Part shown: positions 3,180-17,396 of the stretch, piece after piece
Layout of the letters: each line of letters begins with the position of its first letter
How positions within the stretch are numbered: the stretch's first letter is position 1
Virus record (IMG/VR): IMGVR_UViG_2751185961_000012
Span: 1-21,917 of that record
DNA: 21,917 bases
Direction: 5' to 3' (one strand)
Origin: a virus
Lineage: Duplodnaviria; Heunggongvirae; Uroviricota; Caudoviricetes
Translations under genes and position numbers: made by a program
The notes under the pieces: model-generated
The model's database searches: none
The model's input: the letters and a program-made list of their open reading frames with translations, nothing else
What the model was told of the DNA's origin: nothing

Positions 3180-3551
3180 ATGCGCATTTTTAAAAACGCC
3201 TGGTTTGAGCGATTTGCACGCAAAAACAAAATATCCGACCAGTCACTGCGCGAAATTGTTAAACAGGCTGATAACGGGCTTATCTCAGCAAACCTGGGTA
3301 ACGGCGTTATCAAGCAACGTCTGCCACGAGTCGGTGGCGGCAAATCTGGCGGTTATCGCACAATCATTTTCTATCGCGTCGGCACAAGGGCCTTTTTCGT
3401 ATATGCATACGCAAAAAATGAACGTGAAAATATAACCGCTACTGAGGAAAGTGCATTTCGGAAGGTGGCTCCTCACGTACTCAATCTAACAGATGAACAA
3501 CTGGCACAACTGATTCTACAGGGTCAGTTTACGGAGGTACCCAATGAGTAA
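3180..3551 (+). CDS. RelE/ParE-superfamily toxin, HigB2-like (Toxin_HigB2 type)
   Basis: Recalled HigB2 signature: glycine-rich basic block (RVGGGKSGGYRTIIFYR) followed by FFVYAYAKNEREN; toxin-first order with 8-bp overlap onto the HTH antitoxin gene; start trimmed to MRIFKNAWF. Confidence 0.7.
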   Translation: MRIFKNAWFERFARKNKISDQSLREIVKQADNGLISANLGNGVIKQRLPRVGGGKSGGYRTIIFYRVGTRAFFVYAYAKNERENITATEESAFRKVAPHVLNLTDEQLAQLILQGQFTEVPNE

Positions 3552-3864
3552 AAATTACCGCAGTGATGCGCTTGCATCCGTACATGAAATGATGGAATCG
3601 CTTCATGATATCGGCGCAGTAACGAAACAGACTATGCGAGAATTCGATGAACTCTGCCTGCAACCAGCACCTTCAATGTCTCCTGAAAGAATCCGGGAAC
3701 TCCGTGAGCGTGAACATCTGTCACAATCCGTCTTTGCCAGATACATGAATGTCAGTAAAAACCTGATATCTGACTGGGAACGCGGAGTGAAACGCCCTGG
3801 TGGTCCCGCCCTGCGACTTCTTTCCGTTATTGAAAAAAACGGGATTCAGGCCATAAATGTTTGA
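3544..3864 (+). CDS. HigA2/XRE-type helix-turn-helix antitoxin
   Basis: 106-aa protein with C-terminal XRE-like HTH (IRELREREHLSQSVFARYMNVSKNLISDWERGVKRPGGPALRLL); translationally coupled to the upstream toxin gene. Confidence 0.7.
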   Translation: MSKNYRSDALASVHEMMESLHDIGAVTKQTMREFDELCLQPAPSMSPERIRELREREHLSQSVFARYMNVSKNLISDWERGVKRPGGPALRLLSVIEKNGIQAINV

Positions 3865-3884: not shown

Positions 3885-4166
3885 TCATTCTGGCGGCGCT
3901 TCCCCCAGAGAAGAAATATCATCACCGGATTGCCACATCCACTCCGGCCCCTGCCATCTCAGATCCGGTGAATCATTTCTCTCAGGAATAACTATTACGT
4001 TCCTTTCCATCCGCTCCCTTTCTATCGCCATCACAGCCAATGCTGCAACCATGATGTATTTTTGCTCGTCGGTTCCTGTTTCATAGCGCCACATGAGGGT
4101 AAACTCGGGGCGATCAGTAACCTCAATGATTTCGTTAATTTCTTTAATTTCGCGAGGAATATCCAT
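3885..4166 (-). CDS. Hypothetical protein, about 93 aa
   Basis: Minus-strand ORF convergent with the HigA gene; start trimmed to MDIPREIKE; its ATG overlaps the ATG of the divergent 4165..4839 gene within a CATG palindrome. Confidence 0.4.
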   Translation of the reverse strand: MDIPREIKEINEIIEVTDRPEFTLMWRYETGTDEQKYIMVAALAVMAIERERMERNVIVIPERNDSPDLRWQGPEWMWQSGDDISSLGEAPPE

Positions 4167-4839
4167 GGGTTTAGTCTCCTTTGACATTACATGCCCGCAC
4201 TGTTTAAAAGAGCGAGCTGTTATTGAGGCATTTGCCGAAAAACAAATTGAAAAAACACCTCTTTTTAACGTCGCTTTTGTATGCAGAAGTTGTCATCAAG
4301 GAGGTGTTGCTATTGTTGAAATCCCATCAGACCACTATCACGGCCCTATGGCGGAAAGCCAGAAAAAAGACCTTGATATTCTGATTTCAGGAAATAGCCA
4401 GTACCGTTTCCGCAAGATCTATCCTGCGGTCAAAAAAATTACCGCACCAGAATCTACGCCCCCGGTTGCAGACCGTACTTTTGTTGAGGCAAAAGAGGAT
4501 TTACAGAGGAGGCGGTACGACACAGTGGTTATTCTTTGTCGCAGAGTCCTCGATATCTCAACGAAAAAACTGCTCGGCGATGAAGCAGGAAAAGAATCTC
4601 TGTCGCAACGTATTCAGATGATTTACAAAAAAGGCCTGATCACTGAACAGATGAAGGAATGGGCTCATATTGTACGAATAGATGCCAATAAAGCAGTTCA
4701 TACAGATGAAGTATTCACACCAATTGAGGCAAGCCAGATACTGAGTTTTACCGAAATGTTTTTAGTCTACGCCTTCACTCTGCCTGCAATGGTGGAAGCC
4801 AGATGTGACCAAAAAAGATCAGATTCAGCCTCTATATGA
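4165..4839 (+). CDS. Zinc-ribbon plus DUF4145-domain protein (candidate defence or regulatory effector), about 224 aa
   Basis: N-terminal Cys pairs CPHC ... CRSC; C-terminal half matches the recalled DUF4145 pattern (RRVLDISTKKLLGD ... LSQRIQMIYKKGLI ... AHIVRIDANKAVH ... LSFTEMFLVYAF); the upstream part of the long ORF (4093..) is antisense junk, so the start is placed at MGLVSFD. Confidence 0.65.
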   Translation: MGLVSFDITCPHCLKERAVIEAFAEKQIEKTPLFNVAFVCRSCHQGGVAIVEIPSDHYHGPMAESQKKDLDILISGNSQYRFRKIYPAVKKITAPESTPPVADRTFVEAKEDLQRRRYDTVVILCRRVLDISTKKLLGDEAGKESLSQRIQMIYKKGLITEQMKEWAHIVRIDANKAVHTDEVFTPIEASQILSFTEMFLVYAFTLPAMVEARCDQKRSDSASI

Positions 4840-13000: not shown

Positions 13001-13552
13001 TTACAGCTTTATTCCGCATGCAGTGATAAATTTATTAACAGCACCAGTGGAGCCTAATACATTAAAGCTGAAAGAATATGTCATGGCATCTTCTCGTGTG
13101 ATGTCTTGGCGTCGAATCCCGACCCTCACTCTATGTTTAGCATCTCTGAGTTGCCTGAGTATAATTTTAATTTTCTTCATTTCAGTATCAGTACGTTCAG
13201 TGATAGCTTGTGTTAGCATTGAGTTTCTTCTTGAAAGTGTTGCGTTGAGCCTTATTATACTATTTTTGTCAATTTTTATTGCCATATCTATTGGGAATGA
13301 ATAAATTGGGGCCGATGTTTCTTCTTCTATGTCCTTTTCGACTAATGAGAATGTTAGGGATCTTGGCGTACAATTAAGAGCAATCATGTTATTATCAATC
13401 TCTTCAGGATTTGATGTTTTTTTTCCTACCATCAGCGCCGTGTGACCATCAGAGAACAAATCGTCGTCTGTTACTGTATACCACTCCGCCTGTACTATTG
13501 GTGAAAACAAAATTGTAGCGATAAGAGTTGTCCTGAGTATTTTTCGCATCAT
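13001..13552 (-). CDS. Secreted or periplasmic hypothetical protein with N-terminal signal peptide, 183 aa
   Basis: Classical signal peptide (MMRKILRTTLIATILFSPIVQA then EW); AT-rich gene at the promoter-proximal end of the leftward operon. Confidence 0.6.
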   Translation of the reverse strand: MMRKILRTTLIATILFSPIVQAEWYTVTDDDLFSDGHTALMVGKKTSNPEEIDNNMIALNCTPRSLTFSLVEKDIEEETSAPIYSFPIDMAIKIDKNSIIRLNATLSRRNSMLTQAITERTDTEMKKIKIILRQLRDAKHRVRVGIRRQDITREDAMTYSFSFNVLGSTGAVNKFITACGIKL

Positions 13553-14306
13553 TAAGTTTCCCGTTCAGTTCGACCGACATCCTTCATGAAGTGCTTACAT
13601 AGTCTATTTGATAGCACTACCTACGCGGTAGTATAAAGAAGTCAGTTGAAAACTTGAACATTGTGTTGAAAAAATAACTTTGTGCGGCATAGGTAATCGT
13701 AGAATGATTGTGATTGGTCTTATGGTATCCAATCATTACTTTTGCTACAGGGTTGGGACGGCATCGCTATTTCACGCAACGCTTTGGTGGCACTCTCAGC
13801 ACCCCAAAACATTCCCTGTATTGGTCAGCGCCAACTTCCTGCCAGTGTTGCCCGTTCTCACGCCGTTCTCGCTCTCGCGCGGGGATACTCTCTCATCGAC
13901 CGGATCGCACCCGATGATACAGCACGTTTACGTGTAGGGGTCTAAACAGGTCATTGACGCTGTAAAGCTCCAGATTGTTAAAGAGCATTTTGCGGCGGGT
14001 TAAGTCGCGCCGTACGACTGATTTATGTAGCCCTGTGTAAGGGCGCGATGTTTCTGGCTTGAAATAAATATAACTTGCGGTGATTTTTGTGTAAATACCG
14101 TTGGTGGTTATTGGGGTCAAAAAAATATTACTTAACTGATTTTTAAAGTGATTTATTTTTCAAGGGGGCGGTTAGCGGAGTGCGGTCAAAGAAAAGCCGG
14201 CGCGGGCCGGTTACTCTGTGTGAGATTTGGCGTGAGGGAAAAGCCCCCGGATAACACCAGGAAAAGCAGCGAACAGTCAAAGAGAACCCAGCGGGCTTGG
14301 TGGCTT

Positions 14307-14335
14307 TTGACAAAAACACTGCCTGTAACTATAAT
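14307..14335 (+). promoter_or_regulatory. Consensus sigma70 promoter (TTGACA - 17 nt - TATAAT) upstream of hicA
   Basis: Exact -35 and -10 hexamers with a 17-nt spacer read directly; about 30 nt upstream of the hicA start. Confidence 0.65.
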
Positions 14336-14364
14336 TAGTTGCAATGTAGCGAAGATGAGATTAT

Positions 14365-14619
14365 GTGGGTATGGGGAAAGCAGATAAGCTACTGGAAAAG
14401 TTTTTAAACAGTAAAAAAACGTTTGAATGGGATGAGCTGGTCGTTTTGTTTTCCTCTCTGGGAGATGTCAAAAAGGAAATGCAGGGCTCAAGAGTGCGGT
14501 TTTTCAATGCTGAAATCAACCACACCATATTAATGCATCGCCCACATCCAGAAAGTTATATTAAAGGTGGAACGCTGAAAGCGATTAAACAGAATCTGAA
14601 AGAGGCTGGGGTATTATGA
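14365..14619 (+). CDS. hicA: HicA-family toxin (mRNA interferase-like)
   Basis: HicA-like C-terminal signature (GSRVRF ... HRPHPESYIKGGTLKAIKQNLKEAGVL); ATGA-type overlap with the downstream hicB; start uncertain (GTG at 14365 or ATG at 14371). Confidence 0.7.
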   Translation: MGMGKADKLLEKFLNSKKTFEWDELVVLFSSLGDVKKEMQGSRVRFFNAEINHTILMHRPHPESYIKGGTLKAIKQNLKEAGVL

Positions 14620-14960
14620 AGCATCTAAAATATAAAGGGTATTTAGGTACAGTAGAACCAGATTTTGAAAATAATATCCTGTACGGAAAACTGGCGTTTA
14701 TTCGAGACCTGGTAACTTATGAGGCTTCTACATTAGCTGAACTGGAACAGGAGTTTAAGACATCGGTTGAGCTGTATTTACAGTCTTGTGTGGAGGATGG
14801 AAAGGAGCCTGATACCCCGTTTAAAGGTGTGTTTAACGTCAGGCTTGATCCAGAACTGCATCGTCGGGTAGCAGAAATTGCGATGGAAGAAGATTTATCA
14901 CTGAACGCCTTTGTTAATAAGGCGCTGGAAAAAGAAGTCAACCATCACACAGGGGCTTAA
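14616..14960 (+). CDS. hicB: HicB-family antitoxin with C-terminal ribbon-helix-helix DNA-binding domain
   Basis: N-terminal HicB-like fold signature (KYKGYLGTVEPDFENNILYGKLAFIRDLVTYEASTLAELEQEFK) and C-terminal RHH (RLDPELHRRVAEIAMEEDLSLNAFVNKALEKEV). Confidence 0.75.
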   Translation: MKHLKYKGYLGTVEPDFENNILYGKLAFIRDLVTYEASTLAELEQEFKTSVELYLQSCVEDGKEPDTPFKGVFNVRLDPELHRRVAEIAMEEDLSLNAFVNKALEKEVNHHTGA

Positions 14961-15045
14961 TGTTCCCTTCGTCTTTGACATCCTCACCGCCACGAAGAAT
15001 GGGGAATTTACGGCGCACTGGTAAATGGTGGGGCGAGCAGGAGGC

Positions 15046-15078
15046 AAACAAAACCCGGCACCAAGGCCGGGTTTTGTT
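15046..15078 (+). terminator. Intrinsic terminator downstream of hicB (AAAACCCGGC-ACCAAG-GCCGGGTTTT), probably bidirectional
   Basis: Perfect 10-bp stem followed by TTTTGTTATT on the plus strand; A-run upstream gives a U-run on the minus strand too; sits between the convergent hicAB and peptidase genes. Confidence 0.65.
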
Positions 15079-15247
15079 ATTGGTGCATTTGGCAGGTTGT
15101 AATATCTGGTCCATAAGCCAAAGTAAAAACAGGCTTGTTGATCAAGCCCCTGTTCTTTAATGATTGAATCATTTTTCCTTGCTCGCTAACTTTTTGCTTG
15201 CTAAGTATTTCTTCCACTTGTTGTGTCAGGGATTTGTCTTTGTTCAT

Positions 15248-16159
15248 TTATGACTCACTTTGTTCTGGAAAAGGGAAAGAAGACAGAACAAGAACCTGTC
15301 GATTTGTTTTATACATGTATTCATTAATGACGTTATGTATATTTTTTAACGCCATGCTAAAATCTTTATCGTATGTAAAGTCTTCTACTTTTATCCTTAA
15401 GTCATTGATAAGAGTGTTTATTCCTATCGTTCTTCCGTGAGAATGCCACTTTCCGTTGTCACTAAGAGCGGTAGCGATCATTTTAGCCCTCGCTTCCTTT
15501 TCCCTCTTGGTAACTAGCTTTCCTCGTTTTGTGTTACCCTGATGAACTGTCCACTCTCTAAATTTATACTCCACAAGCCATTTCTTAAGCAAGTCTATTG
15601 ATAGTTCTCTGGCTTGCTCATATCTCCGCAAGTGCGCCAGATCTAACTGACTAAGCATCATCAGTTCAGCTTGGGTAATGGTTCCTTCTCTGGATTTATT
15701 AATCATTTCTTCAACTTTATCAAGGTATCCCAAAGCGGGAACCCATTTACCGTCCGACGATTGCACTTGAGGATCAATAGGTCCTAATGAAGAAGCATAG
15801 TCCATGTAAATTTTATCTCCAGACATGCACCATATTGTACCTGCCGACATAGCCATGTCTGGAATGATAAAATATACCTCTTGGTAGAAATGCCTTGTAA
15901 TTTCTACCATTTTTTCTACAGACTCAACAGAACCACCGTTTGTATTGAGTATAATAACAAGAAATTTATTGGTACGACTGTTAGCCATCTCACCAATAGC
16001 TTCAAGTTTTGGCTGGTAAACTTCTTTTGACCATGGAAAGATGCCACCGTAGTACGCAATGACGTCACAGTTTGGGAAAAATTTATCCTTAAATTGCTCT
16101 AACTGCCAAGAGATGTATGTTTCTAGTGTTGAATCAAGATTTTGGCTCATTTGATACAA
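15248..16159 (-). CDS. ClpP/SppA-fold serine peptidase-like protein (SDH/S49-like) with helical C-terminal extension, 303 aa
   Basis: Motif blocks typical of the ClpP/crotonase-fold peptidases (IILNTNGGSVESV; IIPDMAMSAGTIWCMSGDKIYMDYASSLGPIDPQ, candidate nucleophile Ser in MSAG); AT-rich; located in the repressor-adjacent slot. Confidence 0.65.
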   Translation of the reverse strand: MYQMSQNLDSTLETYISWQLEQFKDKFFPNCDVIAYYGGIFPWSKEVYQPKLEAIGEMANSRTNKFLVIILNTNGGSVESVEKMVEITRHFYQEVYFIIPDMAMSAGTIWCMSGDKIYMDYASSLGPIDPQVQSSDGKWVPALGYLDKVEEMINKSREGTITQAELMMLSQLDLAHLRRYEQARELSIDLLKKWLVEYKFREWTVHQGNTKRGKLVTKREKEARAKMIATALSDNGKWHSHGRTIGINTLINDLRIKVEDFTYDKDFSMALKNIHNVINEYMYKTNRQVLVLSSFPFPEQSES

Positions 16160-16224
16160 TACCTTGTTATATTAACAATTTACTATAAGATGTTGCACCA
16201 TAGTTTTCGTTAATCACAACTAAA

Positions 16225-16246
16225 ATCACCCAAACATCACCCAAAC
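16225..16246. repeat. Tandem direct repeat, 2 x 11 bp (ATCACCCAAAC), with a third ATCAC about 13 bp upstream
   Basis: Read directly; lies 65-90 bp upstream of the peptidase start codon (minus strand), a plausible regulator-binding or promoter element. Confidence 0.6.
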
Positions 16247-16298
16247 GTCTCTTCAGGTTACTAGTTAACAACAGGCCAAAAATTCTGTCTGAACGTAT

Positions 16299-16324
16299 TG
16301 AAATAAAGGCCGGGAAAGCGGCCT
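16299..16324 (-). terminator. Hairpin terminator (AGGCCG-GGAAAG-CGGCCT) flanked by T/A runs, possibly bidirectional
   Basis: 6-bp GC stem read directly; immediately downstream of the stop of the small signal-peptide ORF; T-run on the plus side (TGTTTTT) and TTTATTTC on the minus side. Confidence 0.45.
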
Positions 16325-16329
16325 TGTTT

Positions 16330-16491
16330 TTAGCGAATACCACCACCGCCAGGACGAGAATCAGCAGAACGACCACCACAACGAGAGCCGTCAGCAGCGG
16401 TATCATTGTCGTGTTGGCAACGACCAGCGAATGATTGAGTCGAAGCTACCAGTGACAACAAAACGAACAATACAGCAAATGATTTTTTCAT
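16330..16491 (-). CDS. Small predicted secreted peptide, about 53 aa (signal peptide plus Gly/Cys-containing 30-aa mature part)
   Basis: Internal ATG of ORF 16330..16563 gives MKKSFAVLFVLLSLVASTQSFA then GRCQHD..., a canonical signal peptide; weak Shine-Dalgarno; same strand as cI and directly downstream of it. Confidence 0.4.
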   Translation of the reverse strand: MKKSFAVLFVLLSLVASTQSFAGRCQHDNDTAADGSRCGGRSADSRPGGGGIR

Positions 16492-16587
16492 GTAAGACTC
16501 TATAGGTTGTGGGCAACTCAGATAATAATGCCAGAAAATCGCTTCCCAAGCATCTCCCGGCAAGGTTATTAATATCGCTCTGTGAGC

Positions 16588-17301: not shown

Positions 17302-17396
17302 ACCATATCACCTTTGGTTATATGTAATGAAATATCTGCGGTGTTGACACTTTAATAACTGTGCGTAATGATATGGGCATTTTGAAGGAGTCAGTT
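17302..17396. promoter_or_regulatory. cI-cro intergenic switch region: operator-like sites, rightward promoter and Shine-Dalgarno for cro
   Basis: Lambda-like operator half-sites (TATCACC in TATCACCTTTGGTTATA; CTGCGGTG resembling lambda CTGGCGGTG); perfect -35 TTGACA at about 17344-17349 with a weaker -10 (AATGAT/TAATGA) 16-17 nt downstream; AAGGAG at 17385-17390. Confidence 0.6.

Follow-up and report, generated by a model that had tools for sequence, protein, structure and literature searches.

The hicAB cassette examined here sits in a lambda-like (lambdoid) E. coli prophage, represented by a window of 21.9 kb, the whole stretch of DNA that was analysed. It is best explained as a toxin-antitoxin pair of the subfamily that was founded by the H. 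influenzae genes and that includes the IncX4 'HicA^O^B' modules, working as outlined below and occupying a variable 'moron' slot that extends from the candidate PL/OL to the terminator ending the leftward cI operon; taken jointly, function and placement are given a probability of about 0.85. The consensus sigma-70 promoter, which is seen in the sequence, would drive a single hicA-hicB mRNA, from which translation of hicB would be coupled to that of hicA through an ATGA overlap and aided by a GGGG Shine-Dalgarno of its own. The predicted ribbon-helix-helix of HicB would bind a palindrome, TGTAACTA-N4-TAGTTGCA, and hold the promoter low, as the conservation of the site and the behaviour of Y. 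pestis HicB3 suggest, while the N-terminal domain of HicB would mask HicA in the manner of the solved complexes. Free HicA would then arrest growth, most likely as a ribosome-independent RNase, by analogy with the 94-95% identical IncX4 protein for which toxicity and neutralisation are described; the RNase mechanism itself would be borrowed from a family defined by a catalytic residue that the HicA of the window lacks. Transcription would stop at a bidirectional terminator.

What identifies the two proteins? They had been predicted to be a HicA-like toxin and a HicB antitoxin, and Pfam, PHROGs, AlphaFold models and Foldseek agree on this. The hicA gene lies on the plus strand at 14371-14619, with its ATG at 14371 and its TGA at 14617-14619, and encodes an 82-residue toxin of the H. 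influenzae/IncX4 'HicA^O^B' subfamily of HicA. An in-frame GTG at 14365 is an unlikely start, since the relatives begin with MGK or a near variant of it. The protein is 100% identical to RefSeq WP_069371329.1 and matches Pfam HicA_toxin PF07927 (COG1724) along all 58 profile positions, with a score of 39.2 bits where the cut-off is 27 (7.7e-10), as well as the full length of phrog_8887 'toxin' in PHROGs (1.2e-33); no NCBIfam model matched it. A direct sequence search of the PDB with HicA gave no match and a profile of 17 sequences gave only insignificant HicA matches, with a profile of 71 sequences being needed to reach the solved HicA structures. The AlphaFold model (pLDDT 95) contains the dsRBD-like alpha-beta-beta-beta-alpha fold expected of HicA, made up of helix 20-29, strands 32-36, 41-46 and 51-56 and helix 66-79, together with an additional N-terminal helix (3-13) and short strands at 17-19 and 63-65. 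Its top four Foldseek matches in the PDB are all HicA or HicA-like, namely two chains of B. pseudomallei HicA (6g26_E/F), a HicA-like Thermus protein (1whz) and Y. pestis HicA3 (4p78_C), with target-normalised TM-scores of 0.59-0.72.

The hicB gene, at 14616-14960 on the same strand, encodes a 114-residue antitoxin with an N-terminal partial RNase H-like domain and a putative C-terminal ribbon-helix-helix. It matches Pfam HicB PF05534 (Gerdes class 4) with 68.5 bits against a cut-off of 21 (4.8e-19) and phrog_9151 'HicB-like antitoxin' over its full length (9e-50, PHROGs), and direct sequence searches of the PDB returned marginal matches only. Within the model (pLDDT 90.7) five strands are followed by a helix at 40-60, and the top Foldseek matches, with probabilities of 0.99-1.00, are the HicB chains 6g26_A/B, 4p78_A, 4p7d_A and 2dsy, which represent B. 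pseudomallei HicB, Y. pestis HicB3 and TTHA0281. The concern that the proteins might lack HicA and HicB folds is thus answered by models that match solved chains of both. The last 40 or so residues of HicB give weak but concordant matches that are consistent with a ribbon-helix-helix: residues 72-112 match Arc-like repressor PHROGs at 6.6e-5 and 2.3e-4, none of them strong, the C-terminus aligns with a CopG ribbon-helix-helix PDB chain at an E-value of 0.05 with Pfam Antitox_RHH falling below threshold, and the model here has an extended FNVRL segment followed by helices at 79-91 and 96-112.

The two genes stand in the predicted toxin-first order and overlap by four nucleotides, ATGA at 14616-14619 on the plus strand, in which the ATG of hicB (14616-14618) and the TGA of hicA (14617-14619) can be read directly. 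The same 4-nt overlap is found in 57 of the 63 genome loci that have an intact hicA, and translational coupling of hicB to hicA through the ATGA is probable. No terminator-like site was found on the plus strand between 14371 and 14616, nor an internal promoter for hicB alone inside hicA. Compared with the IncX4 copies, hicA has a poor Shine-Dalgarno, GGGGATGG having become GAAGATGAG, with 7 nt inserted ahead of the ATG. Beyond hicB, between the convergent hicAB and cI-side operons, lies the bidirectional intrinsic terminator that had been proposed, now placed at 15047-15078. Its arms, 15047-15059 and 15066-15078, form 13 perfect pairs around a 6-nt loop, both strands fold (centroid energies of -22.3 and -22.5 kcal/mol; z-scores of -2.8 and -3.7), and UUUUGUU follows the G+C core on each. 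A simple terminator scan of the window did not list this hairpin, the likely reason being that its extended stem takes in the U-tract. Since the stretch in common with plasmids stops at 14976, short of the hairpin, the terminator is part of the phage backbone.

The promoter, PhicAB, occupies 14307-14335 on the plus strand and agrees with the sigma-70 consensus at 12 of 12 positions, as claimed at the outset, with TTGACA at 14307-14312, a spacer of 17 nt and TATAAT at 14330-14335. This exact arrangement occurs only once in the window when both strands are scanned and in none of 100 dinucleotide-preserving shuffles. Across five aligned prophage and plasmid copies the -35 hexamer is invariant and the -10 hexamer is TATAAT in four and TACAAT in the fifth; in the same alignment the stretch TGTAACTATAATTAGTTGCA is almost invariant and the flanking DNA is unconserved. 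How might so strong a promoter be carried ahead of a toxin gene? Autorepression by HicB had been guessed, and a search for an inverted repeat over the promoter brought up a candidate operator, a 20-bp palindrome at 14324-14343 of the form TGTAACTA-TAAT-TAGTTGCA. It spans the -10 hexamer and the predicted transcription start, the hexamer itself consisting of the final two bases of the left arm and the spacer that follows. The window palindrome fits TGYAACTA-N4-TAGTTRCA at all 16 specified positions, and this is the single site in the window even when two mismatches are allowed. A generic repeat finder gave no operator in the window, because the arms in this copy share no exact 6-mer seed, and it was a custom scan that revealed the palindrome.

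The case for an operator is comparative. When the 100 nt upstream of hicA were scanned in 55 distinct sequences from genome loci, with a threshold of at least 12 of 16 positions, TGYAACTA-N4-TAGTTRCA was found in 50 of the 55 against 1.4 in shuffled controls, and it was perfect (16/16) in 17. Two sites are present in 20 of the 55 loci, and in 18 of these 20 they are spaced by 32-33 bp, about three helical turns; no second copy is found upstream of the -35 hexamer in the window, whereas Acinetobacter relatives have one there. The same palindrome arms precede hicA in phage mEp234 and in Avibacterium, the Avibacterium locus and the species genomes having stood in for the locus of the H. influenzae HicB itself. 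Conservation in 50 of 55 loci makes the palindrome a probable HicB operator and lends support to the autorepression that had been guessed. For Y. pestis HicB3, a HicB of the ribbon-helix-helix type, the operator chiefly responsible for repression overlaps the -10 hexamer (PMC11594946). The consensus promoter would be kept low here because the palindrome, the candidate HicB site, covers the -10 hexamer and the start site, and the operator consensus would in this way explain how a perfect promoter is safely carried ahead of a toxin gene.

The cassette is not confined to prophages. The segment that is common to plasmids runs from 14305, 2 nt before the -35 hexamer, to 14976, 16 nt past the hicB stop, and from these limits the mobile unit is therefore taken to be the promoter plus the two genes. 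Identity over this segment is about 91% with the IncX4 copies and 88% with those of IncI2, evidence that one promoter-to-stop cassette moves among prophages and resistance plasmids of both these types. In PLSDB about 800 plasmids match it, and for 552 the match covers at least 80% of the query; the matching plasmids are mostly IncX4, of 30-34 kb, with some IncI2. Lin et al. (Nucleic Acids Res 2025) describe HicA^O^B as having overlapping ORFs with no internal terminator and as predominant on IncX4 plasmids (PMC11878559), and the window cassette has overlapping ORFs, no intrinsic terminator between them and 91% identity to copies on plasmids typed as IncX4, among which the pJIE143 record (JN194214) is not included. 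For the IncX4 plasmid p14EC007a, the toxicity of HicA and its full neutralisation by HicB are shown, with hicA and hicB mRNAs present at equal, modest levels (PMC11878559). The IncX4 HicA^O^B cassette confers a slight benefit in plasmid competition only (PMC11878559), and a role of the IncX4 hicAB cassette in plasmid maintenance was ruled out for pJIE143. Beyond the plasmids, a relative was found in 485 species genomes. The best 80 loci, which were kept, come from the Pasteurellaceae, Acinetobacter, Photorhabdus/Xenorhabdus and other Gammaproteobacteria, and in 63 of these 80 a gene for an intact HicA of this type lies directly upstream.

The residue that most sets this toxin apart from the textbook is at position 41 (codon at 14491-14493, plus strand), which is the canonical catalytic-histidine position at the start of strand beta2. 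The characterised HicA toxins all depend on a histidine that lies two residues past a conserved glycine, at the start of beta2 (PMC11594946, PMC12297915), numbered His23 in E. coli, His24 in B. pseudomallei and the gonococcus and His28 in Y. pestis. In the window the motif is G39-S40-R41, such that the conserved glycine is kept and the canonical catalytic histidine is absent, with arginine in its place. In three independent profile alignments, those to solved structures being weak (E-values of 0.003-0.14; hhalign probability of 11%), R41 falls opposite B. pseudomallei HicA residue 24, Y. pestis HicA3 His28 and E. coli HicA His23, and in the model beta2 starts at residue 41. Among 145 aligned sequences residue 41 is arginine in 128 (88%) and alanine or glycine in 14 (about 10%). 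The same alignment reveals a subfamily-invariant H-[RK]-P-H-P motif, of which codons 56-59 here (14536-14547, plus strand) give His-Arg-Pro-His: H56 is conserved in 140 of the sequences and H59 in 143, with H56, P58, H59 and P60 each at 95-99%. H56 and K57 form an insertion relative to the solved HicA structures, in which H56 has no counterpart. In the model H56 appears to pair across strands with R41 in the hairpin of beta2 (41-46) and beta3 (51-56), a proximity derived from the strand pairing. The subfamily to which these residues belong is large, with 1,501 clusters at an E-value of at most 0.001 (clustered at 50% identity), and the absence of the textbook catalytic histidine from a HicA subfamily of such a size may be of use to those who work on HicAB, as may the operator consensus and the evidence for a mobile cassette. 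Arg41 leaves membership of the HicA family intact, because the founding HicA of H. influenzae shares it, yet it weakens the claim that the HicA of the window works exactly like a canonical HicA.

How then does the toxin act, and does it act at all in this lineage? A working toxin-antitoxin pair with a non-canonical HicA is conceivable, in which catalysis has moved to His56 at the end of beta3 and/or His59, or in which RNA is bound without cleavage; extended to the whole H. influenzae/IncX4-type subfamily, this would make it a mechanistic variant of HicA in which the role of the lost beta2 histidine has passed to His56, with His59. The substitution of arginine for the catalytic histidine of three characterised toxins, the near-invariance of the two other histidines and the predicted pairing of positions 41 and 56 all point this way, as does the toxicity of the IncX4 HicA, which does not have the canonical histidine (PMC11878559). 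Against it stand the weakness of the alignments to solved HicA and the finding that gonococcal HicA remains toxic without His40, its counterpart of H59 (PMC12297915). Relocated catalysis, of which no statement was found in the HicAB literature searched, is thus offered tentatively, both for this protein and for its subfamily, and we would sooner bet against it than on it. To our knowledge no biochemistry exists for HicA of the H. influenzae/IncX4 type, which also counts against it. Were it true, the founding HicA would be a poor model of the 'canonical' HicA active site, and vice versa. A missing histidine does not in any case mean an inert toxin, as the IncX4 protein is toxic without it. A separate doubt comes from codon 32 (14464-14466, plus strand), where TAT (Tyr) has become GAT (Asp) in this lineage: the codon is TAT in three further prophage copies from the same context, whose HicA is otherwise identical, and this non-conservative change, Y32D, is shared with the 99.5% identical prophage of UCPROB-002. 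Residue 32 comes directly after the near-invariant G31 at the beginning of strand beta1 and is tyrosine or phenylalanine in 100 of 144 family representatives and in all 59 close genome loci, with aspartate in none of either set. As Y32D is unseen in any relative sampled, and hicA also has a weaker and more distant Shine-Dalgarno than in IncX4, the toxin of the window may be weakened, and at the extreme the substitution may have killed HicA, leaving HicB as an autorepressor or spare antitoxin in a decaying pair. An aromatic ring at this position is not essential, however, since about 40 of the 144 representatives have alanine, glycine or serine there (other residues are rare), and both ORFs, the promoter, the operator candidate and the overlap are intact in the window copy; a single substitution by itself is no proof of toxin loss, and a disabled toxin is considered quite improbable.

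The position of the cassette raises the further question of what it is selected for. The original prediction had placed it between the early-left and cI operons, and the RefSeq annotation of the UCPROB-002 prophage bears this out. This E. coli carries a 99.5% identical stretch within a lambdoid prophage adjoining a tRNA-Arg gene, in which the order is int ... exo, recT, gamL, kil, a Rha/antirepressor gene and hicA-hicB, both of the latter already being named in RefSeq, followed on the opposite strand by a small ORF, an SDH-type ClpP-like protease, a small membrane protein and a LexA-like cI, and then by cro. The contents of the slot between PL and cI vary: this prophage has an SDH-type ClpP-like protease operon there, a related prophage combines hicAB with a Panacea-domain pair, and in phage PhiR12_3 the place is taken by a small gene of another kind. 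The slot is therefore a modular cargo site, of which hicAB is one known cargo. Such modularity fits the idea that hicAB was selected for lysogen defence against other phages by aborted infection, like other cI-side modules, in place of prophage addiction. The slot is the rexAB position of lambda, where hicAB replaces rexAB in mEp234, and defence islands are reportedly enriched for HicA genes (PMC10865869). Against a defensive role, no PADLOC defence model matched HicA, HicB or the neighbouring protease operon, no phage-defence phenotype was found for the H. influenzae/IncX4-type subfamily in the HicAB literature searched, and deletion from p45 of hicA^T^B, which is of a different subfamily, left resistance to the lytic phages tested unchanged (PMC11878559). 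Defence as the selected role is a possibility that we lean away from. An Rfam search returned nothing within the cassette.

In terms of known systems, the closest is the HicA^O^B of IncX4 plasmids (pJIE143, p14EC007a), which is alike in having HicA 94-95% and HicB 93-94% identical, a nucleotide identity of about 91%, the ATGA overlap without an internal terminator, the same promoter and the same palindrome. It differs in lying on a conjugative plasmid beside transfer genes, whereas the window copy is in a prophage, in a better Shine-Dalgarno that lies 7 nt nearer the ATG, and in the presence of Tyr32 where the window has Asp32. The H. influenzae hicAB, the 'hif-contiguous' locus from which the family takes its name, has a HicB 61-63% identical (Q9LA69), a HicA that is 57% identical, also of 82 residues and with a GSR...HKPHP signature, genes that overlap by 4 nt and a GTAACTATA-type sequence over the -10 hexamer. 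It differs in being chromosomal, and in the Haemophilus copies examined the right arm of the palindrome is degenerate, with no site of at least 12/16 in loci L021-L023. We know of no biochemical characterisation of the H. influenzae pair.

Among phages the nearest parallel is mEp234, a lambda-immunity phage whose GenBank record (EF120460) annotates hicA-hicB downstream of cI in the slot that lambda uses for rexAB, with HK106 (EF120461) giving a matching hicB match. The mEp234 HicA belongs to the same extended subfamily (H-E-P-H-P) and a TGCAACT...AGTTGCA palindrome lies upstream, but its HicA and HicB are only 34% and 40% identical to those of the window, position 41 of HicA is glycine and HicB has a 40-residue C-terminal tail. 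Its genes also run in the orientation of cI and upstream of Timm, and because of this they can be read from PRM, whereas the window cassette is convergent and lies beyond the terminator. The Y. pestis HicA3-HicB3 and B. pseudomallei HicAB proteins (4p78, 4p7d, 6g26) provide the best structural matches for both partners, and HicB3 has a ribbon-helix-helix and a main operator overlapping the -10 hexamer, for both of which the window has putative counterparts. Sequence identity to these is about 10-23%, however, and their HicA has the catalytic G-x-H (His28, His24) and is without the 19-residue N-terminal helix and His56; hicA3 and hicB3 are moreover 174 bp apart. The E. coli K-12 system (b4532/b1438) is alike in gene order, in the HicA fold and in HicB autorepression, established in K-12 and a candidate in the window, and differs in a HicB with a helix-turn-helix instead of a ribbon-helix-helix, in having two promoters and genes that lie 45 nt apart, and in a HicA of 58 residues with catalytic His23.

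Measured against these systems the pair is an ordinary and already known one, annotated in RefSeq, with its families in Pfam and PHROGs and a 94-95% identical plasmid copy that has been tested, and the presence of hicAB beside cI in lambdoid phages is also on record (mEp234, HK106). What is added here is the operator palindrome, Arg41 together with the invariant His56 and His59, and Y32D; the first two are modest and concern the subfamily, not the window, for which the significance is very little. Elsewhere in the prophage a second toxin-antitoxin pair had been predicted that is unrelated to hicAB. A location at about 5.1-5.7 kb is rejected, that stretch being the reverse strand of a gene for a 245-residue protein. 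The second pair is found instead at 3180-3864, where 3180-3551 encodes a protein matching Pfam RelE PF06296 (2.6e-46) and 3544-3864 one with an HTH_3 domain.

The region downstream of cI (15077-16563, minus strand), which holds the position of rexAB in lambda, contains three ORFs encoding a small membrane protein, a 303-aa SDH-type ClpP-like serine protease (Pfam PF01972; phrog_11747 at 6e-99) and a 56-aa product that matches phrog_28875, and none of this cargo is matched by PADLOC models. The protease ORF is whole in the window, yet it is present as two CDS in the 99.5% identical E. coli prophage UCPROB-002 (L001 16149-17052). In the related prophage of E. coli JNEC-KY204 a Panacea-domain protein and a partner ORF (L005 6034-6884) are inserted directly 5' of the same hicAB cassette, an arrangement that shows modules to have been gained independently in the slot. 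In UCPROB-002, which is nearly identical elsewhere, hicA and the antirepressor-like gene are separated by ~870 nt less than in the window, and no annotation is given at the site corresponding to a 183-aa ORF of the window (13001-13552, minus strand; phrog_19473, 6.6e-40). The product of this ORF has no Pfam match and begins with a signal-peptide-like segment. Between it and the antirepressor-like gene, in an unannotated gap, lies a full-length Rfam match to sRNA-Xcc1 (RF02221; 12775-12863, minus strand), which scores 65.9 bits where the gathering threshold is 53 (E 8.6e-11).

What signals, then, surround the hicAB promoter? A leftward promoter-like site, TTTACA-17-TATATT (14067-14095, minus strand; 10/12 consensus match), overlaps ATCACCGCAAGTTAT (14070-14084), whose ATCACC-N4-GTTAT motif recurs at 17307-17321, adjoining the cI start. 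The two matches in the window are weakly above chance (8/100 shuffles), and together with the promoter-like site they make this a candidate PL/OL, which, if correct, would place hicAB between a Timm-like terminator and OL/PL. Closely upstream of the hicAB promoter, the minus strand has two hairpins that resemble terminators, at 14197-14210 and 14244-14263, and these could keep leftward transcription from running on into the candidate PL region. The former falls within a segment (14100-14210) with 80-86% identity to unannotated DNA of many Stx2a-converting phages.

Within the cassette, the Shine-Dalgarno-like element lies 7 nt further from the hicA ATG in the prophage and IncI2 copies than in the IncX4 plasmid copy, owing to additional nucleotides between the two (window 14344-14370 versus L002), and in the prophage copies the element itself has degenerated from GGGGATGG to GAAGATGAG, changes in the leader that suggest lower translation of the toxin. 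When the 80 genome loci that contain a hicB relative were scanned for an intact hicA of the pattern GS-x...H-x-P-H immediately 5' of it, 17 gave none (L009, L012-L014, L017, L018, L020, L024, L028, L036, L040, L043, L045, L066, L072, L074 and L076), several Haemophilus strains being among the 17. Such loci may have an orphan hicB or a decayed toxin gene, may lie at a contig end, or may have escaped the pattern. In two database ORFs, P0074 (182 aa) and P0153 (168 aa), a HicA of the subfamily type is joined in frame to HicB; the fusions may be real (Gerdes class 11), or they may be artefacts of a frameshift where the genes overlap as ATGA.

The second toxin-antitoxin pair (3180-3864, plus strand) consists of a RelE toxin (Pfam PF06296) and a weakly MqsA-like HTH_3 antitoxin. 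At the corresponding position UCPROB-002 has a different RelE/ParE-HigA pair. The 248-aa DUF4145 protein encoded 3' of the pair (4093-4839, plus strand; phrog_1305) gives a weak PADLOC match to PD-T7-4.
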